The notes below the pieces were generated by a model. It worked only from the letters and a program-made list of their open reading frames with translations, did not search any database and was not told the origin of the DNA. Below, piece after piece: positions 3,347-41,782 of a stretch of DNA of 43,466 nt. Made by a program: the position numbers and the translations under genes. The DNA is from Escherichia phage fBC-Eco01. Each line of letters begins with the position of its first letter. Positions within the stretch are counted from its first letter, which is position 1. The stretch is taken from sequence record OM272052.1. One strand, given 5' to 3'.

Positions 3347-3376
3347 AGGCCCCACTACGGGGCCTTAGTTTTATTT
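3347..3376. terminator. bidirectional intrinsic terminator
   Basis: GGCCCC-ACTAC-GGGGCC hairpin flanked by A-run upstream and T-run downstream; lies between convergent portal and antisense gene. Confidence 0.6.
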
Positions 3377-3892
3377 AAATCTTGCAGGCATTAACACCAT
3401 AAAGGCCGTGTTTGAAAATTGTATTTTGCATCCTCTGGTTTGGTCCTGGAAATCGAAACGAGCAATTTCATTTTTGTATGCCTTAGAAATCTTGTACGCG
3501 TCTGCCAAATAGCGCAGAGTGAACCCTATACTATCGACAACACCCGGTGTGATGTGCGCCACGCGTCTCCAGTCAGGAAAGTTTCCTTCTACAACATCTA
3601 CCGGAAGTGTACATATAAGCGCACGATTATCGTCATAGAAAGATACACTGCCGTTGTCGTGGTTTACCTCCGCGTAGTTAAATTTAGAAGGCTCTCTCCC
3701 TTTGATGTCTATGAGAGTCCCTTTCTCAACGTTGGTCTTCACATTGTCGCAGAACAATCTATGACCGTCCGTAGACACTATCAATCCTTCAGGGTCTATG
3801 TAAAAAGCGTTCAAATAGTAGCGAACATCATTTTTAGCCCTGCATATTTTCGCCCCTACATACGCAGGGAAAGTAATTACTGTAGTAACCAT
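3371..3892 (-). CDS. hypothetical protein (antisense accessory gene, moron)
   Basis: 173 aa ORF on opposite strand to flanking head genes; RBS AGGAGA 6 nt upstream of ATG; own promoter copy and terminator; no family recognised. Confidence 0.6.
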   Translation of the reverse strand: MVTTVITFPAYVGAKICRAKNDVRYYLNAFYIDPEGLIVSTDGHRLFCDNVKTNVEKGTLIDIKGREPSKFNYAEVNHDNGSVSFYDDNRALICTLPVDVVEGNFPDWRRVAHITPGVVDSIGFTLRYLADAYKISKAYKNEIARFDFQDQTRGCKIQFSNTAFMVLMPARFK

Positions 3893-3919
3893 TTTGCGTC
3901 TCCTGTTTAAGTTAACTGA

Positions 3920-3948
3920 ATAGTACCCTATTATATTGGTGTCTGCAA
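3920..3948 (-). promoter_or_regulatory. conserved promoter element copy A (TTGCAG-N17-TACTAT, minus-directed)
   Basis: minus-strand reading TTGCAGACACCAATATAATAGGGTACTATTCAG; matches copies at 6064, 15132, 37795. Confidence 0.45.
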
Positions 3949-3992
3949 ATATTATTTTTATACGTTACACTGGCGGTACTATAGGAGGGCAT

Positions 3993-5593: not shown

Positions 5594-5938
5594 TCATTTG
5601 CATTTCTCGTCGTATGTTTGTTGTAACTGCGACAGACGATTACCGGCTGTCATCTCGTCCATAGAAGGCCCAGCGCCTGTGTCCATAAAGAACAGCGGAA
5701 CAAACAGGAATGCGCCTGTAACACCGAGTACAACGTTAGTACCTATTTGCTTATTAACACGGTGCGTAGCGTTGGCTTGAGCTTGTTTTGTCGTGGCGAT
5801 TCTCGATAGTAACTGATTACATGTTGCCGTTGTATCCCCTGCCTGATAAACCTGTAAAGCTGGGTCTGGCAACGACCTTACGCAACCACTCAAACAAACG
5901 GCTACAACACCTGCTACTGCTAATTTAATATATTTCAT
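5594..5938 (-). CDS. putative lipoprotein (accessory)
   Basis: 114 aa; N-terminal signal with lipobox LSGC (MKYIKLAVAGVVAVCLSGC); hydrophobic segment near C-terminus; antisense to head genes. Confidence 0.6.
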   Translation of the reverse strand: MKYIKLAVAGVVAVCLSGCVRSLPDPALQVYQAGDTTATCNQLLSRIATTKQAQANATHRVNKQIGTNVVLGVTGAFLFVPLFFMDTGAGPSMDEMTAGNRLSQLQQTYDEKCK

Positions 5939-6036: not shown

Positions 6037-6063
6037 GACGGCCTCCTCGGTTCGATAGAATGA

Positions 6064-6092
6064 ATAGTACCCTATTATATTGGGGTGCGCAA
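6064..6092 (-). promoter_or_regulatory. conserved promoter element copy B (TTGCGC-N17-TACTAT, minus-directed)
   Basis: minus-strand reading TTGCGCACCCCAATATAATAGGGTACTATTCA about 27 nt upstream of the small peptide ATG. Confidence 0.5.
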
Positions 6093-6134
6093 ACTATTTG
6101 TTTATGTATTCCAGTTATTCCACTCAATTGTAAA

Positions 6135-15090: not shown

Positions 15091-15131
15091 GGTGTAGCTC
15101 CTGTTTGAGTTAACATTGTTGGTGTAAGTGA

Positions 15132-15160
15132 ATAGTATCCTATTATGTTGGGGTGCGCAA
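15132..15160 (-). promoter_or_regulatory. conserved promoter element copy C (TTGCGC-N17-TACTAT, minus-directed)
   Basis: minus-strand reading TTGCGCACCCCAACATAATAGGATACTATTCAC, 28 nt identical to copy D. Confidence 0.5.
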
Positions 15161-15268
15161 GTAATGTGATAGAATAATTTTGCGCCTAGTGTCGCACACG
15201 AAAAGCGGGTGGTTCCCGTCTGGCGCATTTACCATTAACCTGTAACCTCTTAACCAAAGGATTAAAGA

Positions 15269-25345: not shown

Positions 25346-25469
25346 ACCTTAGACACCTATCAAGCCGTAGCGCGCCAAGCACCCCGCCAACGCGCACGAT
25401 AAAACCCCTACGTTTTGTTTCAGCCCATGTGAAAATACCGGTTTCAGGGCCGTATGATACCTTGCTCAT
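25344..25469 (-). pseudogene. HNH homing endonuclease N-terminal remnant (41 codons)
   Basis: ORF MSKVSYGPETGIFTW... overlapping helicase stop (ATGA); N-terminal motif matches the two intact HNH genes but the HNH core is absent. Confidence 0.4.
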
Positions 25470-26896
25470 TTCTTACTCCTACGTTTCATATACTCAAGGA
25501 GGATATCCTGCACCTGTTTTTTCTCGTCTGTGCGTGAAGTGACAACAGAATCCAACGTATCTTTAGCAATAATCTTGTAGATAAAAACAGGCCGATTATA
25601 CCCCGATTGCTTTTGCCGTACTGGCCCTATGCGCTCTACCACCTGTAAATAGTGTTCGAGGTTCCACCCCTGACTGAAAAACGCCATATGATGGCCGCCG
25701 TCTTGTAGCGATATGCCGTGGCCGGCTGACGCGGGGTGGACGCATAAGATTTCAATTTCACCACGGTTCCACGCTTCCATCTGCTTATTACCCTTCGCAC
25801 CTTTGGCAAACGCCTGTGCTTGTGGGAATCGCTTAAGGATACGCTCCAGTTCGTGCTTAAACTGATAGGCCACCAGTAACGGCGCGCCCTGTAGCTCCTC
25901 AACAATGGACTCAAGCGCATCAAGTTTCGTGTCGTGCACTTTCTCCCAGTCTTTCGATGCCTCGCCGTCCGGCCCGGACACATACACGGCACCGGATGCA
26001 ATCTGCAAACACTTCGACGTCTTCGCTGCGGCGTTAGCGGCTTCAACTTCTCCGCTCTCCAGTTCTGCGAATAGCTTCTCCTCCATATCTATGTACGCCT
26101 GACGCGCTTTCTTCGGCAGGTCGATTTCGACCGGTACAATAATCGGCGCTTCGCAACCGAACCACTCGGCGGCGTCAATCGTGAGACTAATGTCCTTCAT
26201 CTTCTGATGAATTTCATTATCCGCACCCGGGCGGGCGTGGTACTCGCGCGCCATAGCCGATTTGCCTTTCTGTACCGAGTTAAACCAGCGGTCGGTGAAT
26301 GCTGTGTACGAAGAACCGAGGCGCTCACCCGCGTCGATAAACCAGTTCTGGCCCCACAAGTCCTTGAGGCCGTTTGGTGATGGTGTACCTGTCAGGTTGA
26401 TGAAACGCTTAACCTTACCGAACGCCACTTTACTAAGTGCCTTTGCCCTCTTGCTACCACCTGAACGGCTGCGGAACGATTTCAGCTTCGTGCTCTCATC
26501 AGCAACGATAACCGTAAAAGGCCAGTCGTCTTTGCCGTAGTAGTCAATAAGCCACTCGATAACTTCGTAGTTCGCGCACACCACGTTAGCGTCCGACTCC
26601 AGCGCCGCGATGCGGCGCTTCTCTGAACCGGTCGCATCTACGACGCGCAGACACGGGAAACCCCACTTAGTTTGTTCTGCGGGCCACGTACCGGAGGCAA
26701 CGCGCAACGGGGCGAGTATCAGCACTCGGTCGTCGTCCGTAAGTTGACCGTTGCGGAACAGGCGGTTAAGAACCCACATTGTCGACGAGGTCTTGCCGCC
26801 GCCCATACCGCACCAGATATTGCAACGTGGGTGCTGTAGCATGAACGAAGTCATGAGCTTCTGGTACTCTCGACGGATAAATTTAGACATGTTCAA
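25466..26896 (-). CDS. superfamily II DNA helicase (SNF2/DEAD-like)
   Basis: 476 aa; Walker A GMGGGKT, DExx-like VADEST motif. Confidence 0.8.
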   Translation of the reverse strand: MNMSKFIRREYQKLMTSFMLQHPRCNIWCGMGGGKTSSTMWVLNRLFRNGQLTDDDRVLILAPLRVASGTWPAEQTKWGFPCLRVVDATGSEKRRIAALESDANVVCANYEVIEWLIDYYGKDDWPFTVIVADESTKLKSFRSRSGGSKRAKALSKVAFGKVKRFINLTGTPSPNGLKDLWGQNWFIDAGERLGSSYTAFTDRWFNSVQKGKSAMAREYHARPGADNEIHQKMKDISLTIDAAEWFGCEAPIIVPVEIDLPKKARQAYIDMEEKLFAELESGEVEAANAAAKTSKCLQIASGAVYVSGPDGEASKDWEKVHDTKLDALESIVEELQGAPLLVAYQFKHELERILKRFPQAQAFAKGAKGNKQMEAWNRGEIEILCVHPASAGHGISLQDGGHHMAFFSQGWNLEHYLQVVERIGPVRQKQSGYNRPVFIYKIIAKDTLDSVVTSRTDEKKQVQDILLEYMKRRSKK

Positions 26897-27087
26897 TCCT
26901 TAACGTAGAGTACCAGCTCTTTACGCCCGAACGCGGTAACGTTGCCTGTTACATCTTCGATAACCAGTTTACCGTTTGACTCGACGAACACAGTATCAAC
27001 GGCAACAGGCTGGCGGGTCTTAACGTTGAAAATCATGTCGCCAGGTACGATGTCACGCGCGGGTTTGCGGTCATATTCGTGTTTCAT
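26893..27087 (-). CDS. hypothetical protein
   Basis: 64 aa; ATGA overlap with helicase; RBS AAGGA. Confidence 0.5.
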   Translation of the reverse strand: MKHEYDRKPARDIVPGDMIFNVKTRQPVAVDTVFVESNGKLVIEDVTGNVTAFGRKELVLYVKD

Positions 27088-27117
27088 TTCTCAATTCCTT
27101 ATATTGTTGGTGTAGGA

Positions 27118-27402
27118 CTAACTATAATAGTTTGCTATTATGTCGTCAACCTGTTTGAACGAGCCGACGACAAAAACATTTGCACCACGTTTACGCATCC
27201 GTTCGTGTTCGCGTAACTGGTGTGGGTCTGGCTTCGTGTTTTCGTCTTTCTTGACCTCAACGAACCAGATGATGCCGCCGGGTAGAAGCACTAAGAGGTC
27301 GGGAGCGCCCACTCTATTTTCGTACGACAATTTGCGTACGAGGCCCCCCAGGGCCTCGAATCGCTCTTTTGCGTATTTCTGAATCTTGCCCTCCGGGGTC
27401 AT
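27118..27402 (-). CDS. VRR-NUC domain nuclease
   Basis: 94 aa; motif PDLLVLLPGGIIWFVEVKK characteristic of VRR-NUC (PD-(D/E)XK-type) proteins. Confidence 0.65.
   Translation of the reverse strand: MTPEGKIQKYAKERFEALGGLVRKLSYENRVGAPDLLVLLPGGIIWFVEVKKDENTKPDPHQLREHERMRKRGANVFVVGSFKQVDDIIANYYS
27121..27149 (-). promoter_or_regulatory. sigma70 consensus-like promoter (TTGACG-N17-TATAGT, minus-directed)
   Basis: minus-strand reading TTGACGACATAATAGCAAACTATTATAGT; overlaps the 3' end of the VRR-NUC gene. Confidence 0.5.
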
Positions 27403-27551
27403 GAGCGCAGAATCCAGGTGATGAAAGCCCCGCCGAGAACGGCAACACCAACAAACTTAAAGAACAGGCCATAATAGAACATCGCAGCTATTCCCGCACT
27501 GAGTAACAGTGCGAGCATGGTTACTATCGTCCAAAATACAAACATTGTCAT
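27399..27551 (-). CDS. small membrane protein (about 50 aa, two predicted TM helices)
   Basis: internal ATG 27551 chosen (ATGA overlap with upstream ORF); strongly hydrophobic. Confidence 0.4.
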   Translation of the reverse strand: MTMFVFWTIVTMLALLLSAGIAAMFYYGLFFKFVGVAVLGGAFITWILRS

Positions 27552-27739
27552 AACAACGGCTCCGCATCTGGGTTTCGCAGGAAGTACGCTTGATAGATGT
27601 CGTGTTCTGAATAGTAAACACCTTTGTGCGTACACCCGGTGCAAGCATCGCTAAAGAACCCATCGCCCATTACCATGATAAATTCCCACTCCGGCATATC
27701 TACTAACGCTTTGGTGTTGCTAAAACATTCTTCTTTCAT
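27548..27739 (-). CDS. hypothetical protein
   Basis: ATG 27739 with RBS AGAGGGG at 8 nt; 63 aa. Confidence 0.4.
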   Translation of the reverse strand: MKEECFSNTKALVDMPEWEFIMVMGDGFFSDACTGCTHKGVYYSEHDIYQAYFLRNPDAEPLL

Positions 27740-27825
27740 AATATGCACCCCTCTCGTTTTGTATGCTCAATCCCGCAGCGCGGACAGATTCGGCAGTCTT
27801 CTTCGTATAACCAGTAAATTTTCAT
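27736..27825 (-). CDS. small Cys-rich peptide (29 aa, CxxC...C zinc-ribbon-like)
   Basis: MKIYWLYEEDCRICPRCG...; stop overlaps next ATG. Confidence 0.3.
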   Translation of the reverse strand: MKIYWLYEEDCRICPRCGIEHTKREGCIL

Positions 27826-27953
27826 TCCAGCACCCACAGATAAATTGCGATGAACATACCTAATACGGCTACCATCATGCCGTATTGGCCCTCGTGACAA
27901 TAGACACCGGCGGCGAATCCCGCCAGTACCGCGATAATCAGTTTACTTAGCAT
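27822..27953 (-). CDS. small hydrophobic peptide (43 aa)
   Basis: ATG 27953 overlapping the DNA polymerase 3' end; two hydrophobic stretches. Confidence 0.3.
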   Translation of the reverse strand: MLSKLIIAVLAGFAAGVYCHEGQYGMMVAVLGMFIAIYLWVLE

Positions 27954-30141
27954 AACGCTTCATCTCCGCGCCTTCCGCTACAAGAGGGAACCCCTCCGCC
28001 CACTCTGGCAACGCACACATTAATTTTTCCAGTTCAGGCACCGTGTAATCCGGCGTATCTGGAGTTTCACATACCAGTTCATCGTGTACCGAAAGCACGA
28101 TGGGATACCCGCCACCCTCAACATTAATCATCGCATACGCAAGTAAATCACGGCACAGCGCCTGAACAATGTTTTCGCAGGCCTTGCCGCCGTGTGTGTA
28201 CAGGGTAGTCCATTGACGGGTTAACTGGTTTTCGCCCTGATACTTGATTCGCACATTCGTATTTACCCGCCCGTCTTCGTCTGTTTCCTTTGTCACACTA
28301 ACGCCGATTCCCGGATACGAGAGGATGCGACCCGACGGCAACTCCATACACAACCACCAGCCAGGAACCTTCCTGCCCGACGAATCAAATTCTACGGTAC
28401 GCCATATGCGGATAGCCCTTTCACCATTCCGGCGCAAGTGTGCTCCCGCCCAAAATTCACGACCAGGATTTCTTACCGCGGCTAAAATACCGTCTTTGAG
28501 GTCGCGCCAGAACGCTACTGTTTCCGGGTGTGACTCGCGCCACATACGCTTGATTGCATCGCAGGTGCGCCACACTTTCTTGTCCAGAATATACGACGGT
28601 CGGTCGTCCTTTTCACCTGGATGCGGGGGGCGCTTGGCTTCCTGGATGCGCGCCCACTCGTACCCGCGTGCAGTGGCCGACCAGATATGGTCCGGGAATG
28701 TACCGTCCATTGTTTTAGCCATCTCAATAAGGTCGAGGCCTAAGTTTTTGGCGAACGTAACGAATGCTCCGACGCCCCCCTCGTAGCCGAGGCCCAGTTC
28801 GCATGCTTTGCCTATCTGTCTGATTTCCTTAAAGTTTTTCTTAATATCGTCAGGGTCCATGCCAAACATCTTACCTGCGGTTACGCAATAAATATCCAGT
28901 CCGGCACGGAACGTATCGAGCGCGGTTTCTTCTCCTGCTAACCACGCTAACCCACGACCTTCGACGTTAGAGTAATCAGCTACGACAAACTTGTGCCCGG
29001 CTTCCGGTATGATGCAGCTACGGACCGTCGATGCCGTCAGCTTGGCTACGTCAAATCGGCGGTGAGCACGACCCTTAAGTAACGCTGAAATGCCTTTATC
29101 CAGTTCATCATCGTGATAGTAACCGCGCGCCAGGTTCTGCGGCTGAAAGCCTTTACCCGCCCATCGCAGAGTGCGTTTTGCCCCGCCGTACTGCAAGCAA
29201 CCACGACGGCGGTCGTCCGACGAGCGACCCAGCAGCAGCGGGTTATATTTCGTCGATGCTGTAGACGCGGCCCCGAGGCGCATTTCGATAATTGTGCGCG
29301 CGTCGTCAGGTAAATCATCGTCCGCCAACAAGTCATTCAGCGTTGACTTCTGCGCGTTGTGGATGCGGTGCGCAGGGGCGAGTTCACGCAAAATAGGCAG
29401 AAAGTCCTTACCGGTAAGTGAACCGCCGTATTTGCGTTGGGCTTCTTCCTGTAACTGTGCTTTGTGTTTCTCCACGGCTTCAATCGCGGCTTCCGCCAGT
29501 GCGACGTCAACCTTAAACCCGCGGTCGTTGATTAACTGGTCCAGTTCCAGTACACGGTCCTCAAACTCGGAGTTACCCCAACGCGGCAGCTTATGGAAGA
29601 CTTCACGCATTGCGGTGATGTCGCTCACGGCGTACTTGATGAACAGCGCCCACTCGTCAGGGTGTGTTTCTGCGGTGTAGCGGCGGATTTTGTAGTTCTT
29701 CGGTGTAGGTTTAGAGAAACGCTGAATCAGCGCCTTGCCGCGTTTATCTTTCGCATTGTCAGCGGACACGCCCAGCACTTCGCACAACGCATCAAGTGAC
29801 CCCGGCAGCGCGTGACGAAACGCCCAAATCATTGTATCAATGGTGTTGCTTACCGGAATATCAAAGTCCCAACAGTGCTTCATGATGAGCCTGTCGAACA
29901 TTAAAAAGTTATGGCCTACGATTTTCATACGTCCGCGCATAACATTACGGAGTGCAACGCGGAGGCTTATCGGCATTACTGGTTCGGAAGTGCAATCCCA
30001 TACTTCTACAGGACCGTCATCAACGGCATATGTACAAATTATAACCTCGGTCGTTGGATGCTCCGCGTACGCGTACGACCCGACTTTCTTTAAGTCTGCT
30101 TCGGAGAATGTCTCAGTATCCAGGTACAATAAACTAGTCAT
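27943..30141 (-). CDS. DNA polymerase, family A (Pol I-like) with 3'-5' exonuclease domain
   Basis: 732 aa; exonuclease motif LYLDTETFS; polymerase motifs DYSNVEGR, RQIGKACELGLGYEGG and VHDELV. Confidence 0.9.
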   Translation of the reverse strand: MTSLLYLDTETFSEADLKKVGSYAYAEHPTTEVIICTYAVDDGPVEVWDCTSEPVMPISLRVALRNVMRGRMKIVGHNFLMFDRLIMKHCWDFDIPVSNTIDTMIWAFRHALPGSLDALCEVLGVSADNAKDKRGKALIQRFSKPTPKNYKIRRYTAETHPDEWALFIKYAVSDITAMREVFHKLPRWGNSEFEDRVLELDQLINDRGFKVDVALAEAAIEAVEKHKAQLQEEAQRKYGGSLTGKDFLPILRELAPAHRIHNAQKSTLNDLLADDDLPDDARTIIEMRLGAASTASTKYNPLLLGRSSDDRRRGCLQYGGAKRTLRWAGKGFQPQNLARGYYHDDELDKGISALLKGRAHRRFDVAKLTASTVRSCIIPEAGHKFVVADYSNVEGRGLAWLAGEETALDTFRAGLDIYCVTAGKMFGMDPDDIKKNFKEIRQIGKACELGLGYEGGVGAFVTFAKNLGLDLIEMAKTMDGTFPDHIWSATARGYEWARIQEAKRPPHPGEKDDRPSYILDKKVWRTCDAIKRMWRESHPETVAFWRDLKDGILAAVRNPGREFWAGAHLRRNGERAIRIWRTVEFDSSGRKVPGWWLCMELPSGRILSYPGIGVSVTKETDEDGRVNTNVRIKYQGENQLTRQWTTLYTHGGKACENIVQALCRDLLAYAMINVEGGGYPIVLSVHDELVCETPDTPDYTVPELEKLMCALPEWAEGFPLVAEGAEMKRYAK

Positions 30142-30607
30142 GGCAATAAAATTCCTTGTGCAGTTTTTCTCTTAATTTCTTTACGGCGCTTTCTGCTTCT
30201 TCAAGAGTTCCGTAGCTACCAGCGTTATAGCTTTTGTAGTTAAAATGCACACGCCCGTAAAATCGGTTGCCGTTTTTAACCACTCCCTTAACTCCGGTTC
30301 TAGCTCCCTTATTTTTAGCGTTTCGCACATTATCAGCGGTTGTTGCTTTCCTTAGGTTAGAAATCCTATTGTCTAACCTGTCACGGTTTATATGGTCAAG
30401 AGGCCCATCGGGCCATTCACCGTACTCGAAAAACCAAGCAAGCCTGTGGGCCATGTAATATCTACCCATATAAGGTATGCGCCAGTATCCACTACTATTG
30501 ATGCATCCAGCGATGTCTCCGGGTTTTCCTCGTCTGTACGTAGGTTGTATCCATGTGAATACCCCTGTCTCTCGGTCGTAGCTTAGAAAATCTTTTATAT
30601 GTTCCAT
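30134..30607 (-). CDS. HNH homing endonuclease with AP2-like DNA-binding domain
   Basis: ATG 30607 with RBS GGAG; motifs AHRLAW, HINRDRLDNRISNLR; C-terminal GVKGV...NRFYGRV AP2-like segment. Confidence 0.7.
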   Translation of the reverse strand: MEHIKDFLSYDRETGVFTWIQPTYRRGKPGDIAGCINSSGYWRIPYMGRYYMAHRLAWFFEYGEWPDGPLDHINRDRLDNRISNLRKATTADNVRNAKNKGARTGVKGVVKNGNRFYGRVHFNYKSYNAGSYGTLEEAESAVKKLREKLHKEFYCHD

Positions 30608-30623
30608 TCTGACTCCGGTAAAA

Positions 30624-30641
30624 AGGCCCAATGATGGGCCT
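30624..30641 (-). terminator. intrinsic terminator (minus-directed) between SSB-like gene and HNH gene
   Basis: AGGCCCA-ATGA-TGGGCCT hairpin followed on the minus strand by TTTTACC. Confidence 0.5.
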
Positions 30642-30661
30642 TAGTTAAATTGATTCAGATA

Positions 30662-31288
30662 TTAGCGGCGGCGACGTTCGCGGCGCGGAGCTTCATCTTC
30701 TTCGTCATCTTCCAGGTCGTCGACGCTTGCCGCGACTTTAGAACCGCCAAACGCTTTACCTTCGCCGACGTATTTAATCGCCAGCAGATTAACACCGAGA
30801 ACTTTGTATTTCTGGCTGAACCAGATTTCAATGCTTACGTTAGCGACGCAGCCGCTGTAAACCTGTTCACCTTCAATCTGCTCGCCGTCTACATTGAAGT
30901 CCTGCTCTACCTGAGTCTCGCCTTTTTTAGAGGTTACAATCAGTGGCTGTTTCTGAGCTTTCGCTTTGAAGTAGAAGCCTTCCGGGAAGTCTTCAAACGG
31001 ATTGTCGCGCTCGGCAATGTCCTTAATCGCGCATTTATCCATGTGCTTACCTTCGCCGTAGTTGGACTTCATCCATTTCTCGGCGGCGGCTGCACCTAAC
31101 GCTTCTTCAACTACAGCGTAAACAGTGTCGTAGAGCGCATCGATTTGAGCATGGTCAGACGGCAGGATGATAGTCGCGCTGTACTGGCCTTTAGTGATTG
31201 AGCCATCATCGTTTTCACGGTCTTTTTCACGTTCGAATACGTTAACCCAAGCAGTGTTTACTTTACGCAGATTTAATTTCAGTCCCAT
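30662..31288 (-). CDS. DUF2815-like putative ssDNA-binding protein
   Basis: 208 aa; strongly acidic C-terminal tail DDLEDDEEDE as in SSBs; genomic context next to DNA polymerase and DUF2800 nuclease. Confidence 0.55.
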   Translation of the reverse strand: MGLKLNLRKVNTAWVNVFEREKDRENDDGSITKGQYSATIILPSDHAQIDALYDTVYAVVEEALGAAAAEKWMKSNYGEGKHMDKCAIKDIAERDNPFEDFPEGFYFKAKAQKQPLIVTSKKGETQVEQDFNVDGEQIEGEQVYSGCVANVSIEIWFSQKYKVLGVNLLAIKYVGEGKAFGGSKVAASVDDLEDDEEDEAPRRERRRR

Positions 31289-31341
31289 TTGATTTCTCGC
31301 TTTTCAGTTTACTCCGGGGAGCTGCCCGGCCAGTGATTAGA

Positions 31342-31370
31342 ACTATAATAGCTAACTATTCAGGTGTCAA
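31342..31370 (-). promoter_or_regulatory. sigma70 consensus promoter (TTGACA-N17-TATAGT, minus-directed)
   Basis: minus-strand reading TTGACACCTGAATAGTTAGCTATTATAGT upstream of the SSB-like gene. Confidence 0.5.
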
Positions 31371-31603
31371 CCCTTCCAGCCAGTTATTTTCTCAACTATG
31401 GTTATGTATACGTCAGGCCACTTCAAATTACGCACCCACTCAACTTCTTTGGCATACACCAACTCCTCTAGTTCTATTTTCCTGCACTTAAATGCGGTAT
31501 ACACGAAAAACGGAAGAAGCATTATGGCCAGCGGCAGTATTAGCGCGTGATAAGTTAAAAACGCCACAAAACCACCAATTACTCTGAACATTTTACGAAT
31601 CAT
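31367..31603 (-). CDS. small membrane protein
   Basis: ATG 31603 with RBS GAGGAGG at 7 nt and ATGA overlap; hydrophobic N-terminal half. Confidence 0.4.
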   Translation of the reverse strand: MIRKMFRVIGGFVAFLTYHALILPLAIMLLPFFVYTAFKCRKIELEELVYAKEVEWVRNLKWPDVYITIVEKITGWKG

Positions 31604-32841
31604 TCTAAATCCTCCTCTGTTGCCTGATTCCACTCAGGACGTTTGTCGTCTGCCGTTGCGACACATGGTGCGCCCGGCTTACGGGTAATGAAGTCTTTCA
31701 GTTCTTCTTCCGGTATAATTTTAACCGCTTCGGTAGGCGTCATGATAACTTCTTTAGTCAGCTTGTCGCCGTAGAGTTCTGCCACTTTCTCCGCGTCTTT
31801 CCACGCACGATTACCCGGCCTACCTTCAACCAGCTTGTACCCCGGAACTTTCTTACCGGAATGCAGCGAGGCAGCCATAGCTTTTTCAACCTTTTCGATG
31901 TGCTGGCGCAACAACGGCAACTTCTCATACTCAGCTACGAGTTGCTCCGGCGTCAGTTCCAGCGCAAAGTCGTCCTCCAGTTCTTCCGCCAGCACCGCGT
32001 TAACGGTTTTTGTACGCGCTGCGCACTGTTCAGAGAACCGGCACCACTGACAACCATCGACCGACGGCTTAAAGTCCGACGCTTTCAGGTTCTTCTTGCC
32101 GCGGGAATACGCATCTAACGCTAACAGTGCCCGTTTCCGCGCAAACTTAGCGAACAGTTCCAGACCTTCAACCGAGATGTCCCACTCCGACGCACCACCA
32201 GCGTACGGCTGGAAGATGACCAGACGAACCGTTGTTACGTTATAGCGTCGCTTGAGTCTGCGATAAACACCGAGAGCATAGAGCATAAGCTGCTTGTTCT
32301 CTTTCGCTTCGACACGATGTCGTCCTGTTTTCAGGTCGCCGATAATTAGCATGTGCTCTTCGGTGTTCGCCAGTTCCTGGACGGCAACAAGGTCAGCGGT
32401 TCCGAACGTCTCGACACCTTCGTAACCAGGATGCAACACCTCAGTAAGATTGACACGCATTTCCAGCTTAGCGTAAGTCGCTACATCGATAATCGCTTTG
32501 CAGTAGTCTGTGTACTTGCGAACCTGCTCAATCATATCCGCCGTAATCAGTACTGCGCCTTTCATCGGACTGATTAGCGCCTTAATCTGGCCTTTACCCT
32601 CATCCAGCACGTAGGCACCGACTTCACGTTCTAACGGCAACGCAGTGCCTTTGATGTACTGGTTTAAGTGCATCTCAGCTATGGTGTGCATGGCTGTTCC
32701 TAATACCGCGGCTTTACCTGACGTGTTAGGAATATCTTTTTCACAGGCCAGTGATGCCGCGCAACTTAGCCAACGTTTACTACTGGAAGGTGATAACAAT
32801 GAATGTTCGTCGTTACTCCCGCTTCTGCCCTTAATTTTCAT
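31600..32841 (-). CDS. DUF2800-like PD-(D/E)XK nuclease with Cas4-like Cys cluster
   Basis: 413 aa; N-terminal Cys (RWLSCAASLACEK) plus C-terminal CQWCRFSEQC arrangement typical of Cas4/RecB-type Fe-S nucleases. Confidence 0.65.
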   Translation of the reverse strand: MKIKGRSGSNDEHSLLSPSSSKRWLSCAASLACEKDIPNTSGKAAVLGTAMHTIAEMHLNQYIKGTALPLEREVGAYVLDEGKGQIKALISPMKGAVLITADMIEQVRKYTDYCKAIIDVATYAKLEMRVNLTEVLHPGYEGVETFGTADLVAVQELANTEEHMLIIGDLKTGRHRVEAKENKQLMLYALGVYRRLKRRYNVTTVRLVIFQPYAGGASEWDISVEGLELFAKFARKRALLALDAYSRGKKNLKASDFKPSVDGCQWCRFSEQCAARTKTVNAVLAEELEDDFALELTPEQLVAEYEKLPLLRQHIEKVEKAMAASLHSGKKVPGYKLVEGRPGNRAWKDAEKVAELYGDKLTKEVIMTPTEAVKIIPEEELKDFITRKPGAPCVATADDKRPEWNQATEEDLE

Positions 32842-32913
32842 TTAATAGCCCCGTGATTTTTATGGAATCCTAACTCTTTTTCTGCATTTTTACGCGCCAC
32901 AACGGCGTCGTCT

Positions 32914-33351
32914 TTATTCTCGAAATATCCAAGACCTATGAACGAGCTTTCTACTCTTATATATATATGCCCGCCACAACTTACGAGTTTTGCACCAGCT
33001 TACACCAGTAACGCCGCTGGTGTTGTTAGATGCTAAAGACATATTCTTGTGATTTCCGGCGCTACTCACCTTCCGCAGATTGGTAATTCGATTGTTTCTC
33101 CTGTCGTGGTCAATATGGTCTATTTGCTCTCCGGGCTTTAGTAAATCATCTGGGTTACAAAGGTCCCATATAACACGATGCGCTTTACGCACAACGCCGA
33201 GCACCTTAACTTGAGTGTAGCCATGAACGTCGTTGGACCCCGCCTCCTGTCCAGCCTTAACTTTGTCGGAAGGTGATATCTTCCAATACAATTTCCCGGT
33301 ATCAGGGTCGTAGTCAAAAACTTCATGCCAATTCATACCCTGTTCTCCCAC
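32914..33351 (-). CDS. HNH homing endonuclease
   Basis: 145 aa; motifs YDPDTGKLYW, AHRVIW, IDHIDHDRRNNRITNLR. Confidence 0.7.
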   Translation of the reverse strand: MGEQGMNWHEVFDYDPDTGKLYWKISPSDKVKAGQEAGSNDVHGYTQVKVLGVVRKAHRVIWDLCNPDDLLKPGEQIDHIDHDRRNNRITNLRKVSSAGNHKNMSLASNNTSGVTGVSWCKTRKLWRAYIYKSRKLVHRSWIFRE

Positions 33352-33605
33352 TGATCAATTAAATGTCGTGTCTGGTGATGACAGTGCATAGCCCACCCAT
33401 ACATCGACTCGAAGACATAAAAGTCAGGCTTGGCAAAAGTCGTGCGCTTAATCTGCGACACATGACGGCCTATATCTTTAGGCCGTGGTACTTTACCTAA
33501 GTACGCCATCTCTTCCATCTGGCGCGCACCGGATGGTGCACGCAATAGCCATAGCGCCTCTGTGTCATCCCGCCTGTCTACGGCGCGGTAGAGTTGGTAA
33601 ATCAT
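33333..33605 (-). CDS. hypothetical protein
   Basis: 90 aa; His/Cys cluster HCHHQTRH. Confidence 0.45.
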   Translation of the reverse strand: MIYQLYRAVDRRDDTEALWLLRAPSGARQMEEMAYLGKVPRPKDIGRHVSQIKRTTFAKPDFYVFESMYGWAMHCHHQTRHLIDQWENRV

Positions 33606-33648
33606 AAATCCGACCCTCAGTTAAAGCGGCCCGAAGGCCGCGAGATAG

Positions 33649-34146
33649 TTATTCTTCTTCGAAATACTTGTTCTTGATTGCCGTCAGGCGTTCCAGGTAC
33701 TCGGCCAGGTCTTCGTCCTTAATCGCGGCAATCTTCATCTTCTTACCGGTGAACTCTTCCAGCAGTTCATCAGACTCGTCACACGCGGCATCGCTCGGGC
33801 CTTCGTTAATTGCATCGTCGATAGCCTGAATCTGGTCACGCAGAGATTGGTAATCTACTTCTTTTTTCTCTTCTTCCGGCTCTGGCGTCGGTTCCTCTGC
33901 TTTAGCTTTACGCGTCTTGCGTTTCGGCTTCTCTTCCTCCGCAGGTTTAGTGTCAACGACGTCTTCACCTTCAACCGTGATTTCTTTTGCTTCTTCGGCG
34001 CACTCGCCCGCCGCTTTTTTGGTATACACTACTGTCTCTACTTCCAGCGGCGCATCGGCATGAACAACTTGTTTTGCACTGTTCGCAGCAATCAGTTCAT
34101 GCGCAACTACGAAACGTTCCAGTAATTTTAAGAATTGGTCTAACAT
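33649..34146 (-). CDS. hypothetical acidic protein with central KR-rich patch
   Basis: 165 aa; RBS GAGGAGA at 7 nt; first gene behind strong promoter. Confidence 0.5.
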   Translation of the reverse strand: MLDQFLKLLERFVVAHELIAANSAKQVVHADAPLEVETVVYTKKAAGECAEEAKEITVEGEDVVDTKPAEEEKPKRKTRKAKAEEPTPEPEEEKKEVDYQSLRDQIQAIDDAINEGPSDAACDESDELLEEFTGKKMKIAAIKDEDLAEYLERLTAIKNKYFEEE

Positions 34147-34177
34147 TTGTTTCTCTCCTCTCGTTTTGTATGGACTA

Positions 34178-34206
34178 ACTATAATAGCGAACTACTCACA
34201 TGTCAA
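34178..34206 (-). promoter_or_regulatory. sigma70 consensus promoter (TTGACA-N17-TATAGT, minus-directed)
   Basis: minus-strand reading TTGACATGTGAGTAGTTCGCTATTATAGT in the divergent region next to the HTH gene. Confidence 0.5.
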
Positions 34207-34270
34207 TGGGCTTTTCTAAAATAATTAATATGGTACTATTCACATATCAACTGACTAAGGAGTAATTGAC

Positions 34271-34486
34271 ATGCAACCATCTGAACTAGGCATCCGTGTA
34301 GAACAACGCCGCAAAGAACTCGGCATCTCCCAGCGCCGTCTGGCTGTCCTGACTGGCGTTTCCCAGGGCGCGATTAACCAACTGGCACTTGGGGTAACTC
34401 AGGACGTCCGCCCGGTGACGCTGTTTAAACTGGCGGAAGTGCTGGAAGTAGACGCCAAATGGCTGGCGTTTGGTGAAGGGGCTTAA
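34271..34486 (+). CDS. XRE-family helix-turn-helix transcriptional regulator (Cro/CI-like)
   Basis: 71 aa; HTH signature ISQRRLAVLTGVSQGAINQLA; RBS AAGGAG; own terminator. Confidence 0.7.
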   Translation: MQPSELGIRVEQRRKELGISQRRLAVLTGVSQGAINQLALGVTQDVRPVTLFKLAEVLEVDAKWLAFGEGA

Positions 34487-34502
34487 CGCCCCTTTCTTTT
34501 TA
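34477..34502 (+). terminator. intrinsic terminator after HTH gene
   Basis: AGGGGC-TTAAC-GCCCCT hairpin followed by TTCTTTTT. Confidence 0.55.
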
Positions 34503-34503
34503 C

Positions 34504-36711
34504 CTATTCCAAATCCTCTTCTGTCACTATCAGCATCTCATTCGGTTCGTATATTGTCTTCGGCCTTAACCTATCTCCTATTCTTTCGGGTATACGATAT
34601 GTTCTCGGTACTACTTCGCCGTTAGCATCGCAGCCGAGCATTAGTTCACCATCTTTCAGCATTTTATCAAGATGGGTGTTAGTCACAGAAAAGTCACCGG
34701 AACGGGCCACTATCTGCTGCTGAGTAAAACCGCGACCTGTGTCATCTGACTGTTGCAGGTCTTCCAGTGCTGAAAGTATTGACTCCTTCCTTACTTCATC
34801 CCTGCCGCGTTTAACCTCTTCCTTTACTTTTTGTTTACCTTCGTTATTCAGCCCTTCTTCCCGCTCTTTCTCCTCGTCAGTTTTGAACGGCTCGAAGCCC
34901 CACGGCATCAGCACAAGCGCCTTGTGCGGCTCCGGCAGGTCGAGGTTTACTATTGTGCCGTATTCCTCTGTGCCGCCCAGGAACTCAGCCGCACGGTACT
35001 CTTTCGGCGGTGGTGCTTCACGGAACTGTACAGACTCAAGTACCATGCCAACCGTTTTCTGTTGAGGCCCGTGCTTAAATTTCGAGTGGTATACGTTTAT
35101 CTGACGGTCGGTTGCACGTTCTATTGTCAGTTCCACATCGACACCCGCATACAGCGCCCCGCTGCCACGGGCTTTCTTTCCGCCCTTCGGTGTATGGTGG
35201 ACGACGCCCACCGCGGCTTTAGTTGCGTCACGTACTTCTTTCAGGATGGCGATAACTTTACCCATGCCGATTGCCGTTGATGAACTGTTCTCGTCGAACT
35301 TATCAATCGTCAGGGCCAGTGTCTGGTTAAGGGTGTCGAACGCAACCATCCCAATTGGCTCGTCACCCGCAGTTTCTCGCATTAGCTTAATCAGGCTTTT
35401 CAGTTTGCCAACTTCGCCCATATCGATGACATGTACATAATCTTTACCTTCCTCGCCGTATTTAGCCGCGAGTGCATCAATACGGGTGCGTGTGGCAGCA
35501 CCGCCCTCACCGTCAATATAGAAATGGTGGCAACGCTGTGTATCAGCGCCTGCAAACCGGTACCCTGCGGCGCTCAGGTACATCATACCCAGCGTATAGA
35601 ATGATTTATATGTGCCGGATTCCCCGACGATGTCCCAGATGCAATCCGACGGCATGTACCCTTCAACGACGAAATCAGCCTTTACCGGTTCAGGTAACTC
35701 GTCATCGTCTTCAAGGTCTTCCAGTGTACAAGTTACAGGCTCCTCGTTCTCTGTGCGGTGCAGTTCTTCAATCTCTTCATCCGGTAAATCAGGCAGAGCC
35801 GCACGAATGCTGTTAATACTGATAGGTTGCTTGTCTACGTTAAGCTCGTCTGGGAGGCCACACATGCGCAGGGCCAAATGTTGCCGGCGGTTAAGCTCGG
35901 TGCAAGCGCCGTTGTTTGTGTGCTGACACACGAAGCGCACTTCTTTACCGTCAAGCATGATGCTGGTGGAGCCTTTTCCGGTGTGCAGGTGCTCGTTAGG
36001 GCAAGGCACTTCGTACCCACGCCCGGAAGATAAAGCGTCAAGACCAAGCTCGGCTTCGCAGAAATGCGCTATATCAGCGTTAAGCCCATGCTCATCGGCG
36101 ACAAGGGTCTTAGCTTCACGTTTACGCAGCCCCATTTCTTCGGCTTTCTTGATGTACCGCTCGGCACGGATAACACGCCCTTCTGTAACCGTTATCTTCG
36201 ACTCTTTATGCGGCAGGTAGATAAGGCGGTTGCCATCTTCTGTGCAGTGGTCGCGCAATGCTTCGTCTATTCCTAACTCTGCACAAATAGCACGTTGCAC
36301 CATCCACGCATCGTTAGAGTTAAACGGAGTACGAGCCGGAACCAGAACGCGGAATGCGTAATCACCGTTTTTACACGCGTGCTGATGCGATGCCGTTGTG
36401 TGCAGAATATTGAAGAACGGCGCGTTCTTGAATTTGCGGGTAAGGTCGCGGTACTGAGTACGGTTGAGATGGTCGAAGTCGAACTTAACCACACTGTCTT
36501 CCAGGATAGCGTTTTTACGGCGACCACCAACGGGGGCAATAGCTTTCTGCTTAATCTTGGCGGCGTCGTACTCTTCCTTAGTCCATGACGGGTCCACGGA
36601 TAAACGCTTCGATGTATCGCAGACATACTCTACGAACTGCTCCAGCGGCATTTCACGTGCTACAGGGTTTTTATCGAATGTGTTACGCAGCGTTGCAAAA
36701 ACAATATTCAT
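34504..36711 (-). CDS. DNA primase-helicase (phage-type primase plus P-loop NTPase)
   Basis: 735 aa; Zn-binding Cys/His cluster CPNEHLHTGKG...FVCQHTNNGAC; Walker A VGESGTYKS. Confidence 0.75.
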   Translation of the reverse strand: MNIVFATLRNTFDKNPVAREMPLEQFVEYVCDTSKRLSVDPSWTKEEYDAAKIKQKAIAPVGGRRKNAILEDSVVKFDFDHLNRTQYRDLTRKFKNAPFFNILHTTASHQHACKNGDYAFRVLVPARTPFNSNDAWMVQRAICAELGIDEALRDHCTEDGNRLIYLPHKESKITVTEGRVIRAERYIKKAEEMGLRKREAKTLVADEHGLNADIAHFCEAELGLDALSSGRGYEVPCPNEHLHTGKGSTSIMLDGKEVRFVCQHTNNGACTELNRRQHLALRMCGLPDELNVDKQPISINSIRAALPDLPDEEIEELHRTENEEPVTCTLEDLEDDDELPEPVKADFVVEGYMPSDCIWDIVGESGTYKSFYTLGMMYLSAAGYRFAGADTQRCHHFYIDGEGGAATRTRIDALAAKYGEEGKDYVHVIDMGEVGKLKSLIKLMRETAGDEPIGMVAFDTLNQTLALTIDKFDENSSSTAIGMGKVIAILKEVRDATKAAVGVVHHTPKGGKKARGSGALYAGVDVELTIERATDRQINVYHSKFKHGPQQKTVGMVLESVQFREAPPPKEYRAAEFLGGTEEYGTIVNLDLPEPHKALVLMPWGFEPFKTDEEKEREEGLNNEGKQKVKEEVKRGRDEVRKESILSALEDLQQSDDTGRGFTQQQIVARSGDFSVTNTHLDKMLKDGELMLGCDANGEVVPRTYRIPERIGDRLRPKTIYEPNEMLIVTEEDLE

Positions 36712-36836
36712 TTCTTTTTCTCCGCACGTTCTAAGGCTTCCTGCATACGGCGCATTGCGCGGTTCATCTTTACCGGTGCGAAGAAATCAGCGCCGTGTTT
36801 CTGGCGGCGTAGCTGTGGAACTATTAACTTTGTCAT
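36708..36836 (-). CDS. small basic protein (42 aa)
   Basis: ATG with RBS AAGGA at 7 nt; stop overlaps primase ATG. Confidence 0.3.
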   Translation of the reverse strand: MTKLIVPQLRRQKHGADFFAPVKMNRAMRRMQEALERAEKKK

Positions 36837-36876
36837 TGTATAATCCTTATGCTTACTTTGATGATTTGTACTTTAA

Positions 36877-36908
36877 CCCCAACGTTCTGGCGTTGGGGTT
36901 TCTTTTTA
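36877..36908 (+). terminator. plus-oriented intrinsic terminator-like hairpin
   Basis: CCCCAACG-TTCTGG-CGTTGGGG followed by TTTCTTTTT on the + strand, inside a - strand operon. Confidence 0.4.
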
Positions 36909-37196
36909 CCGGTTTGCTAACTCACCCAGCAAATTTTTATACTCTTCAAAATAATCCGCAACCAAATCATCGCCGAAATAGAAGTCGATATACTCGAGAT
37001 TATCTCTTACGTTAAGCGACGCCGACATGGTGCTTAGCTGGCGTAAGCTAATTAGCTTCATTTCTGTTTCTACGCAGAAAGGCCGGTAGGTATCAAGGTG
37101 GCAAGAGATGTTGAAGCATAGGGCGAACTCTCCAACCACGGAGTGAACCATATACACTTCGTTTTCTGCTTTATTGTGGAAAATTACACCTTTCAT
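36906..37196 (-). CDS. hypothetical protein
   Basis: 96 aa; ATGA overlap with upstream HTH gene. Confidence 0.5.
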   Translation of the reverse strand: MKGVIFHNKAENEVYMVHSVVGEFALCFNISCHLDTYRPFCVETEMKLISLRQLSTMSASLNVRDNLEYIDFYFGDDLVADYFEEYKNLLGELANR

Positions 37197-37375
37197 TTCA
37201 CATTCTCCTTAATCCACGCTTCAACTTTATTACGGTCAAATGTTCCTGGTAAACGGCGACCCATAACTTTAATACAGCAGTCAGGGAATTTACCACTGCG
37301 CAACCAGTTATTAATTGTCTGGCGTGTCACCCCAATACGCTCAGCTACTTCATTCTGTGTCATGTAATGTTGCAT
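37193..37375 (-). CDS. helix-turn-helix DNA-binding protein (AlpA/Xis-like)
   Basis: ATG 37375 with RBS AGGAGA at 8 nt; HTH segment TQNEVAERIGVTRQTINNWLRSGKFP. Confidence 0.55.
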   Translation of the reverse strand: MQHYMTQNEVAERIGVTRQTINNWLRSGKFPDCCIKVMGRRLPGTFDRNKVEAWIKENVK

Positions 37376-37472: not shown

Positions 37473-37502
37473 TTGAAAGTTCTTGACACATGTTTGTATA
37501 AT
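37473..37502 (+). promoter_or_regulatory. strong sigma70-like promoter (TTGAAA-N18-TATAAT)
   Basis: perfect -10 TATAAT, good -35; no ORF downstream before terminator at 37702. Confidence 0.5.
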
Positions 37503-37508
37503 GGTTTT

Positions 37509-37729
37509 GGGACTTGTATATATTACGGAGTTGACGAACCCTCCCCGAGGGATTCGTCAACCCCTCCCAGACAACTGAGATGCTTGCCTTGGGGTTTAAG
37601 GATAAGTGTATCTAAATCTCATTTAAAGAAGTAACCCGCTGAAATATCTACTGTTTCTTAATGTGCCGTAGATTCGCAACCGTAAAAATGTAACGATTAT
37701 TGGGCAGGCTTAAGGCCTGCCCTTTAGTT
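37509..37729 (+). ncRNA. candidate ~220-nt non-coding RNA
   Basis: bounded by TTGAAA-N18-TATAAT promoter and GGGCAGGC-TTAAG-GCCTGCCC terminator; 5' region holds a 14/15-bp hairpin; no RBS-led ORF. Confidence 0.3.
37702..37729 (+). terminator. intrinsic terminator
   Basis: 8-bp GC-rich stem GGGCAGGC/GCCTGCCC followed by TTTAGTT. Confidence 0.55.
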
Positions 37730-37794
37730 ACCAAGTAATAAGAATAAAGGCACAACCTTCCCTAAAGAATCACAACGGCAACGTAACTAATCTC

Positions 37795-37823
37795 TTGCAC
37801 ACCCCAACATAATAGGATACTAT
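37795..37823 (+). promoter_or_regulatory. conserved promoter element copy D (TTGCAC-N17-TACTAT, plus-directed)
   Basis: TTGCACACCCCAACATAATAGGATACTATTCAC upstream of the rightward small-gene cluster. Confidence 0.5.
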
Positions 37824-37857
37824 TCACGTATCGGGACGAGACAGAGGAGTGAGGGTT

Positions 37858-38043
37858 GTGTTTAAGAAGGGTCAGTTGGCGAAAACTAAACGCGGCGGAC
37901 AGTACGTAATAGTTACCCAGGACGAGGATGAATTTAGTATCGCTGTAGACGTATGGGGGCTTGTACGAAAGAAACATGGTTACGCTTTCCGCGATAATTT
38001 AAAACTCATCGGCAACAATTTTAAATTCAAAGGGGCGAAGTGA
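37858..38043 (+). CDS. hypothetical protein
   Basis: GTG 37858 with RBS GAGGAG at 8 nt; 61 aa. Confidence 0.5.
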   Translation: MFKKGQLAKTKRGGQYVIVTQDEDEFSIAVDVWGLVRKKHGYAFRDNLKLIGNNFKFKGAK

Positions 38044-38960: not shown

Positions 38961-38989
38961 TTGCACGCTGGGATAGAATAGACTACTAT
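38961..38989 (+). promoter_or_regulatory. promoter element variant (TTGCAC-N17-TACTAT, plus-directed)
   Basis: TTGCACGCTGGGATAGAATAGACTACTATTCATC; same -35/-10 and downstream TTCA as copies A-D, divergent spacer. Confidence 0.5.
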
Positions 38990-39020
38990 TCATCTACACA
39001 AACGAGAGGAGAGACAGAAG

Positions 39021-41732: not shown

Positions 41733-41753
41733 TCTATTTTCTGTAATGACTAG

Positions 41754-41782
41754 TTGACTATTATCTATGACACTATTATATT
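41754..41782 (+). promoter_or_regulatory. sigma70-like promoter (TTGACT-N17-TATATT)
   Basis: good -35 and -10 at canonical spacing just downstream of the terminator. Confidence 0.5.

Follow-up and report, generated by a model that had tools for sequence, protein, structure and literature searches.

On balance, we favour the reading that a small helix-turn-helix (HTH) protein of Escherichia phage fBC-Eco01 (record OM272052.1; the whole 43,466-nt stretch analysed is referred to as the window) is a 434-Cro-like repressor of itself, of its divergent neighbour and probably of all phage promoters that carry a particular 14-bp dyad. This dyad, AATAG-N4-CTATT, is the palindromic core noticed in the preliminary description of the locus and the likely binding site of the protein; its presence within almost all strong phage promoters suggests that the HTH protein turns down phage transcription genome-wide. 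Judged by sequence, the protein is a member of the HTH_3/XRE family and would work most like 434 or lambda Cro. The gene itself is already annotated; the network of promoter-embedded dyads and its lineage variants are undescribed as far as we found. The features of the locus are listed below, with the basis of each call in brackets.

34271..34486, plus strand: Cro/CI-type HTH gene (HTH_3), 71 aa, ATG start (open reading frame (ORF) list, Pfam)
34258..34262, plus strand: ribosome-binding site (RBS) AGGAG, 8 nt before the ATG (sequence)
34231..34239, plus strand: predicted promoter of the HTH gene, PR, extended -10 TGgTACTAT (analogy with promoters of other lineages)
34227..34240, no strand: candidate operator OR, AATATggtaCTATT, over the PR -10 (1 mismatch to the dyad)
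34183..34196, no strand: candidate operator OL, AATAGcgaaCTACT, within the spacer of leftward promoter PL (1 mismatch to the dyad)
34178..34206, minus strand: leftward promoter PL, TTGACA (34206-34201), 17 nt, TATAGT (34183-34178) (11/12 sigma-70 match)
34475..34503, plus strand: intrinsic terminator of the HTH transcript, stem GAAGGGGC/GCCCCTTT followed by a T run (terminator call)
33649..34146, minus strand: ORF of a 165-aa acidic protein (phrog_3127), divergent from the HTH gene (ORF list, profile match)
34504..36711, minus strand: helicase-primase ORF (AAA_25, phrog_3228), convergent with the HTH gene (ORF list, profile match)

The class of the protein was assigned from profiles, solved relatives and a structural model. 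The 71-aa Cro/CI-like regulator of the preliminary description was present as an ORF and matched Pfam HTH_3 well above its cutoff (45 bits against 23; 1.1e-11), and the HTH_19 and HTH_31 profiles likewise exceeded their own cutoffs. The best solved relative by sequence was 434 Cro, also of 71 aa (E 4e-6, residues 6-68), followed by the DNA-binding domain of the 434 repressor. The AlphaFold2 (AF2) model (pLDDT 77) contains helices at residues 5-17, 21-28, 32-39, 48-57 and 62-66, and a Foldseek search with it returned the 434 repressor domain and 434 Cro at template-modelling (TM) scores of 0.72-0.80, together with P22 c2, SinR, C.AhdI and HipB at about 0.7-0.8. Helix 2 corresponds approximately to residues 21-28 and the recognition helix to residues 32-39 (SQGAINQL), which in the alignment retains the Gln, Ile, Gln and Leu of TQQSIEQL in the 434 repressor. 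In the 434 complexes, Gln28 and Gln33 touch operator positions 1 and 4-5, and Gln29 touches positions 2-3. The 434 half-site ACAAG and the half-site AATAG differ at positions 2-3 only, and the equivalent of residue 29 is Gly here, an analogy that would fit the half-site difference but is suggestive only; a literature search on the 434 contact residues located nothing usable. The HTH domain spans the whole 71-aa protein, which is thus a single domain like the lambdoid (434-type) Cro, and the C-terminal S24 peptidase/dimerisation domain of the LexA-like CI type is absent; a true CI with such a domain was seen solely in an unrelated locus (L049). Neither an integrase nor a CI-type long repressor was found among the window ORFs or in annotated relatives, in line with the earlier remark that no integrase was seen. 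Because cI and integrase are absent, the HTH gene is not part of a lysis-lysogeny switch.

The gene stands alone in its orientation, as had been described: it is the sole convincing plus-strand gene within 25466 to 37375, the remainder being on the minus strand. Its convergence with the primase gene, its divergence from a strong leftward promoter (11/12 match) and its own RBS and terminator were likewise evident. The terminator hairpin (34475-34495; 8 pairs, 5 of them G-C, followed by CTTTTT; -15 kcal/mol when folded in context) overlaps the end of the HTH gene and ends just ahead of the helicase-primase stop codon, and homologous terminators are annotated in the Ent1 and PVP-SE2 records. Read on the minus strand, the hairpin is not followed by a T run, and leftward read-through across the HTH gene would therefore be possible.

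The 124-bp region between the HTH gene and the 165-aa gene was compared among 37 distinct sequences of close relatives of the Kagunavirus type (K). PL is predicted from its sequence to drive the 165-aa gene and the recombination and replication genes beyond it. The opposing PR was read from homologous TTGNNN-N16-18-TA(C/T)A(G/C)T promoters that occupy the corresponding position in other lineages; its -35 is weak (TTTTCT, 34212-34217, 16-nt spacer), and it would yield a leader of about 25 nt. A plus-strand promoter is annotated at this position in the PVP-SE2 record, and Jerseyvirus and five more distant lineages share this back-to-back layout of PL and PR, with clearer PR -35 boxes. Between the PL -35 and the RBS (34207-34262) the 37 sequences are almost invariant, and AGGAG is identical in 36 of them, the remaining one having AGGAA.

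Two copies of the palindromic core had been reported for this region. Both are present, one at each promoter, but in the window each is imperfect by one mismatch. For OL the mismatch, a T-to-C change at 34195 (CTACT), is private to the window, the other 36 of the 37 sequences having a perfect site (CTATT). That substitution aside, the OL half-sites are invariant, and two of the four central bases and the bases beside the -35 vary. The left half-site of OL occupies the middle of the PL spacer, where sigma-70 needs nothing. OR is imperfect in the K relatives, in which OL is perfect, and is likewise more mismatched than OL in a set of more distant lineages (T, described below). OL and OR are 44 bp apart, centre to centre, and a longer repeat, ACTAYTCACATRTCAA, is also present twice in the intergenic region at a distance of 44 bp. 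Helical phasing of the two operators was considered, and no claim was drawn from it, as the distance is inconsistent across lineages (44, 55, 64 and 65 bp). By analogy, two sites bracketing the HTH start region can be taken as the classic autoregulatory arrangement. As a separate observation, the type I-E CRISPR array beside cas1e-cas2e in E. coli 2017.09.02CC (NZ_AP025214.2; locus L088, 1501-1533) holds a 32-nt spacer identical to 34203-34234. Its target lies exactly between OL and OR in the near-invariant stretch, with an ATG protospacer-adjacent motif at 34200-34202.

Outside this region the dyad, with its 5-4-5 spacing, occurs in seven perfect copies in the window, and it is the commonest perfect 5-mer inverted repeat there (spacers of 0-8 nt). 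The 19-mer of the promoter elements, TGAATAGTNNNCTATTATA, has 12 matches at no more than 3 mismatches against 0.25 expected. All seven perfect dyads fall within promoter-like sites; the promoters concerned are sequence predictions rather than mapped transcription start sites. These copies and related sites (no strand is assigned to a dyad) are as follows.

3919..3932: perfect dyad in the predicted TTGCAG-17-TACTAT promoter of minus-strand gene 3371..3892
6063..6076: perfect dyad in the predicted TTGCGC-17-TACTAT promoter of minus-strand gene 5594..5938
15131..15144: perfect dyad in the predicted promoter of a minus-strand superinfection-immunity gene
27126..27139: perfect dyad, spacer of leftward TTGACG-17-TATAGT; operon of the SNF2-type helicase
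31347..31360: perfect dyad, spacer of leftward TTGACA-17-TATAGT; operon of the single-stranded DNA (ssDNA)-binding protein and DNA polymerase
37811..37824: perfect dyad on a predicted rightward TTGCAC-17-TACTAT upstream of ORF 37849..38043
38977..38990: perfect dyad on a predicted rightward TTGCAC-17-TACTAT upstream of an ATG at about 39021
41749..41762: dyad with 1 mismatch, ACTAGttgaCTATT, overlapping the -35 of TTGACT-17-TATATT (41754), rightward, before small pre-terminase genes

Two kinds of promoter can be distinguished. In the first, TTGACA-17-TATAGT, the dyad lies in the spacer; its members (27149, 31370 and 34206, all leftward) precede the helicase, the ssDNA-binding protein/polymerase and the 165-aa protein/exonuclease units. 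In the second, TTGCRC-17-TACTAT, the dyad lies over the -10 and the -35 scores just 3/6; its members precede 3371..3892, 5594..5938 and the superinfection-immunity gene, all on the minus strand, and two rightward units (37811 and 38977). What we term class-B elements were considered as promoters devoid of a -35 but with a conserved leader, an interpretation that was rejected since the other strand reads as an ordinary TTGCRC-17-TACTAT promoter facing the adjacent genes. In four of the five promoters of the second kind, a block CTTGCGCACCCCAA(C/T), the reverse complement of TTGGGGTGCGCAAG, adjoins the dyad:

3936-3950, 6080-6094, 15148-15162 and 37794-37808: CTTGCGCACCCCAA(C/T) blocks

The fifth promoter (38977) has TTGCAC alone, and the HTH gene's own promoter has no such block. 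The block is conserved beyond what a -35 needs, 15125-15161 and 37794-37830 being 95% identical over 37 nt, and a second factor may act there. The strongest dyad-free promoter-like site of all, TTGAAA-18-TATAAT (11/12), which belongs to 37473-37725 (plus strand), is followed about 200 nt downstream by a good terminator (37702-37722) with no credible ORF between; 37473-37725 is thus a candidate for a non-coding RNA of approximately 210 nt, predicted from these signals, between the gene of an excisionase-like (xis-like) protein and a rightward promoter. No Rfam match was obtained anywhere in the window. In phage TS6 (L002, near 3519-3635) a similar promoter-plus-terminator unit was read by eye.

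Together, these observations are consistent with the following scheme. The HTH protein would bind as a dimer to the 14-bp dyads, two of which would flank the HTH start region, OL in the PL spacer and OR on the PR -10. As the protein accumulates, it would shut PL first and then limit its own synthesis, an order proposed because OL is perfect in the relatives and OR is imperfect in the K lineage. The dyad also covers the spacer or the -10 of at least seven other sigma-70-type promoters, which are predicted to serve the replication and rightward operons as well as three accessory genes on the minus strand. Given the dyad in these promoters, the HTH protein is most likely a general Cro-like turn-down factor in a phage without CI or integrase. 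The earlier suggestion of a regulator of the conserved promoter elements is thus upheld as far as the dyad is embedded in these elements and shows a lineage pattern; that the HTH protein binds it is what we infer.

The lineage pattern was obtained from 80 IMG/VR loci fetched with the HTH alignment, which were grouped as Kagunavirus-type (K), Jerseyvirus-type (J), five TS6-like lineages (T1-T5) and unrelated lambdoid loci. Exact gapped-motif counting in the T loci was abandoned because it was swamped by coding-sequence background; the informative signal there is a degenerate pattern together with promoter context. The degenerate dyad A[AT]TA[GC]-N4-[GC]TA[AT]T occurs per 10 kb at 2.5 in K, 2.1 in J, 1.4 in T1, 1.7 in T2 and 3.1 in T3, against about 0.1 in T4, T5 and the lambdoid loci, and nearly all listed instances are in promoter-like contexts. 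Half-sites differ by lineage: AATAG makes up 340 of 344 in K; J has 89 AATAG and 14 ATTAC; T1 uses ATTAG, AATAC and ATTAC, never AATAG; and AATAC accounts for 6 of 8 in T3. The recognition helices of the HTH proteins also differ among these lineages. In four of the five dyad lineages the lineage's own dyad (0-1 mismatch) is found at both promoters beside the HTH gene, and in T2 the site at the HTH gene's own promoter has two mismatches.

The window encodes another HTH protein that could be thought to read the dyad:

37193..37375, minus strand: xis-like HTH (HTH_17, "excisionase and transcriptional regulator"), 60 aa (profile match)

T1-T3 carry the dyad family in their promoters and have no xis-like homolog (complete TS6 genome included), so the xis-like HTH is not the common binder and was rejected as a general one. 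The half-site variants, together with the absence of the xis-like HTH from the T lineages, suggest that the Cro-like HTH protein is the binder.

The surroundings of the gene also differ between lineages. In the TS6-like loci examined (L002, L054-L066, L077, L080-L083 and L086), the HTH gene heads a rightward unit, followed by a small gene and then by a helicase-primase of a type other than in the window (about 30% identity), and this unit diverges from an operon of the 165-aa protein and the exonuclease. K and J have a different helicase-primase in the opposite orientation, convergent with the HTH gene, and for this reason the HTH gene would be monocistronic there, with its own terminator. The comparison indicates a module replacement or inversion beside a conserved control region, and the TS6-like layout resembles, by analogy, a lambdoid immunity region lacking cI.

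A 1.6-kb stretch around the HTH gene matched 437 phage records in a nucleotide search. The best matches were E. coli phages of the genus Kagunavirus (Bas70-76, NTEC3, 590B and K1G relatives; 92-95% identity) and the next were Salmonella Jerseyvirus (80-90%), on which basis the window phage is assigned to Kagunavirus in the Guernseyvirinae, small siphoviruses that are lytic according to published papers. By tblastn the HTH gene was found in 555 phage records (Kagunavirus 94-100% identical, Jerseyvirus about 50%, a third group about 40%); the 165-aa neighbour was found in 483 records, with 355 Salmonella and 11 Kagunavirus records in both searches. The two genes occur together and in synteny in about 480 records, which answers the earlier proposal to search relatives for the same gene. 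The ratio of nonsynonymous to synonymous substitution rates (dN/dS) of the HTH gene was 0.05 over 36 distinct Kagunavirus-type alleles and 0.03 over 8 Jerseyvirus alleles, and the gene is under strong purifying selection. Helices 2 and 3 are unchanged even in HTH variants of 78-86% identity. The only damaged alleles seen, in two Jerseyvirus-type loci (L084 and L048), carry one change each, a 1-nt insertion truncating the N-terminus in one and a stop loss adding 9 aa in the other, and these are possibly sequencing errors.

The arrangement is therefore not peculiar to the window genome but is conserved and already annotated across the subfamily. Many records name the product "transcriptional repressor", "regulator", "HTH domain protein" or "DicA", and the PVP-SE2 record already annotates divergent promoters and a terminator around the gene. 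The K1G and K1ind3 records (NC_027993.1, GU196281.1) contain the intact ORF without annotating it, and in Bas74 (L006, 33202-33417) the intact gene is mis-annotated as a spurious 31-aa ORF on the opposite strand. Several papers claim that these phages have no repressor gene, yet their own gene lists include the HTH gene (590B). Prior work on Jersey-like promoters was sought in the literature and nothing usable was located. In the neighbourhood of the locus, one further ORF was recorded:

32914-33351, minus strand: HNH_3 homing-endonuclease ORF, 145 aa, between the exonuclease gene and a 90-aa gene

This ORF is probably a mobile insertion, because Bas74 has no gene at that place.

Timing of expression can be judged from the sole RNA-seq study of a relative, phage K1B4 (PMC12645636; text and supplement). 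The HTH gene was considered as an early gene and this was rejected, because the supplement assigns the HTH among the four early genes to K1B4_008, which is xis-like and the only early gene with a functional annotation. The ortholog of the HTH gene, vB_Eco_K1B4_004 (3386..3601, plus strand, beside the AAA gene _005), is named middle-stage, a class that holds 42 of the 57 genes in this coarse RNA-seq. The idea of an early-to-middle switch put forward in the preliminary description is thus not borne out, and a Cro-like turn-down developing during the middle period would fit better.

Several points weigh against a genome-wide role of the Cro-like HTH protein. The middle-stage assignment of its ortholog is one of them. 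Another is that no functional study of the protein, by binding or genetics, was found in the searchable literature. In T4 and T5 no operator candidate was found, the HTH gene being present without a recognisable multi-copy dyad. The K and J proteins share only about 50% identity and differ at 4 of 8 recognition-helix positions (SQGAINQL vs SQSLITHL), yet both lineages use AATAG, and the co-variation of half-sites with lineage is confounded by the overall divergence between lineages. The xis-like HTH, in contrast, is 82% identical between Kagunavirus and Jerseyvirus. In each dyad one half overlaps a -10-like sequence, and the conservation is thus partly due to promoter function. Finally, if nearly all promoters carry the site, including the one before the late genes, a simple shut-off leaves late expression unexplained. 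The strongest form of the proposal, in which one Cro-type protein controls essentially every sigma-70 promoter of a strictly lytic phage by way of operators within the spacer or the -10, the half-sites (AATAG, AATAC, ATTAG) co-evolve with the recognition helix across Guernseyvirinae-like lineages, and expression of the protein in trans confers lineage-specific "immunity", is tentative. An independent prophage homolog sharing the recognition helix was sought, and the word-indexed protein search gave close relatives alone (78-97% identity).

It is also conceivable, if rather unlikely, that the HTH protein is a local autoregulator at PL and PR, or acts at another local site, and that the genome-wide dyad is read by a different factor: the early xis-like HTH of Kagunavirus and Jerseyvirus, another phage protein or a host protein. 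The repeat ACTAYTCACATRTCAA could be such a separate local site. For the xis-like protein speak its conservation of 82-100% between the genera that share AATAG, against about 50% for the Cro-like protein, and its position as the sole HTH named among the four early genes of K1B4 (PMC12645636). The presence of the dyad family in T1-T3 promoters, complete TS6 genome included, in lineages that have no xis-like homolog, argues in the other direction. Proteins of the HTH_17/excisionase type also typically bind direct repeats rather than 14-bp dyads, and we know of no E. coli regulator with an AATAG-N4-CTATT consensus.

An improbable further explanation regards the dyads as a by-product of promoter architecture and duplication, with the HTH protein acting on host or resident-prophage genes. 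The sequence CTATTATAG does read as a -10 on both strands, the class-B elements are all in divergent intergenic regions, and the promoter elements share more than the dyad, forming repeat families of 30-45 nt. Promoter architecture does not, however, account for the left half-site in the TTGACA-17-TATAGT promoters, which sits in the middle of the spacer and lacks a matching -35 on the opposite strand. The two promoter classes furthermore place the dyad in different registers to the -10, yet the 5-4-5 spacing within it is fixed, and the half-sites drift by lineage while the promoter hexamers stay constant. A host target might be read into the "DicA" label of some records. E. coli DicA is about 135 aa long with a C-terminal domain and is paired with dicC and dicB. 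The 71-aa length of the product so labelled (KY295896.1; 590B paper) does not fit.

Less probable again is that the HTH gene and its operators are a working immunity-like module from a temperate ancestor that permits a repressed episomal carrier state (pseudolysogeny). The TS6-like layout of HTH gene, small gene and helicase-primase, diverging from an exonuclease operon, resembles the pR (cro-replication) and pL (exo) operons of lambda. A clinical E. coli isolate from blood moreover yielded record CP088689.1 (pC16EC0033-2); this circular "non-mobilizable plasmid" of 44,086 bp is a complete Kagunavirus genome in which the HTH gene is intact. It is 91.6% identical to the window over the region and is the only such record in PLSDB, where no Jerseyvirus equivalent was present; it lends weak support to a carrier state, and phage carried over in the sequenced culture would account for it just as well. 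Besides the lack of a CI-type long repressor and an integrase, no partition genes were found in the window or in annotated relatives, no prophage copy of the region was present in 5,426 complete E. coli genomes, in which the sole match was the CRISPR spacer, and published papers call these phages lytic. A restriction-modification controller (C protein) or an XRE-type antitoxin, suggested by weak structural and sequence similarity to C.AhdI, HipB and HigA, was rejected on gene context as very improbable, since the HTH gene forms a single-gene unit ending at its own terminator, neither neighbour is a nuclease, methylase or toxin gene, no partner ORF lies on the plus strand between PR and the terminator, and the 434 proteins match better by sequence.

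The Guernseyvirinae (Kagunavirus, Jerseyvirus) are among the most frequently isolated Salmonella and E. coli therapy phages, one of them, CM001, serves as an engineering chassis, and their transcription programme is essentially unstudied. If the HTH protein does read the dyads, it would give a handle on this whole programme, with repressible promoters and a trans-acting off switch, and would explain the annotated "repressor" in phages declared free of lysogeny genes. Its lineages would provide a small natural series of protein/operator variants for the evolution of specificity, and the "immunity" would act against phages that serve in therapy and as chassis in synthetic biology. Otherwise the protein remains one more uncharacterised XRE regulator.

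Among known systems, the use of one symmetric operator in several promoters of a single replicon by a small HTH dimer has a parallel in IncP KorA (and KorB), as described in PMC2665229 and PMC4889941. KorA differs from the window protein in serving a plasmid, belonging to an unrelated protein family and acting with co-repressors. In Bacillus phage phi29, which is lytic, the small DNA-binding protein p4 represses early promoters by binding sites that overlap them. Unlike the HTH protein it has a different fold, also activates the late promoter and works with p6, and in the window no activation site is evident. Mycobacteriophage L5 gp71 acts at about 10-30 dispersed sites (stoperators) in a genome-wide down-regulation, and the lytic D29 keeps the sites. 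The likeness lies in one small phage repressor with many dispersed sites; the sites in L5 are asymmetric 13-mers, many located inside transcription units, and gp71 maintains lysogeny, whereas the window sites are dyads inside promoters of a lytic phage. Beyond the subfamily, the HTH protein has its closest homologs among the Cro proteins of temperate lambdoid phages, the nearest one found being that of Klebsiella phage GZ7 (44% identity). GZ7 cro lies between cI and cII beside three 14-bp ACAA-N6-TTGT operators. Like the HTH gene it is the first gene of a rightward unit and adjoins 14-bp dyad operators, which have the same layout as AATA-N6-TATT in the window; GZ7 differs in half-site and in having cI, cII and integrase, none of which is found in the window. 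In contrast to lambdoid cro in general, the divergent neighbour of the HTH gene encodes the 165-aa acidic protein, not CI. Compared with 434, the window has no cI partner or lysogeny module, the half-site is AATAG and not ACAAG, and there are two local sites rather than three, with at least seven further sites genome-wide. The domains of 434 Cro and repressor nevertheless share with the HTH protein the five-helix HTH_3 fold (36-42% identity in structural alignments), the 71-aa length in the case of Cro, and a recognition helix that keeps Gln-x-x-x-Ile-x-Gln-Leu, and in both systems the operators, candidate ones in the window, are 14-bp dyads of 5-4-5 form over divergent promoters.

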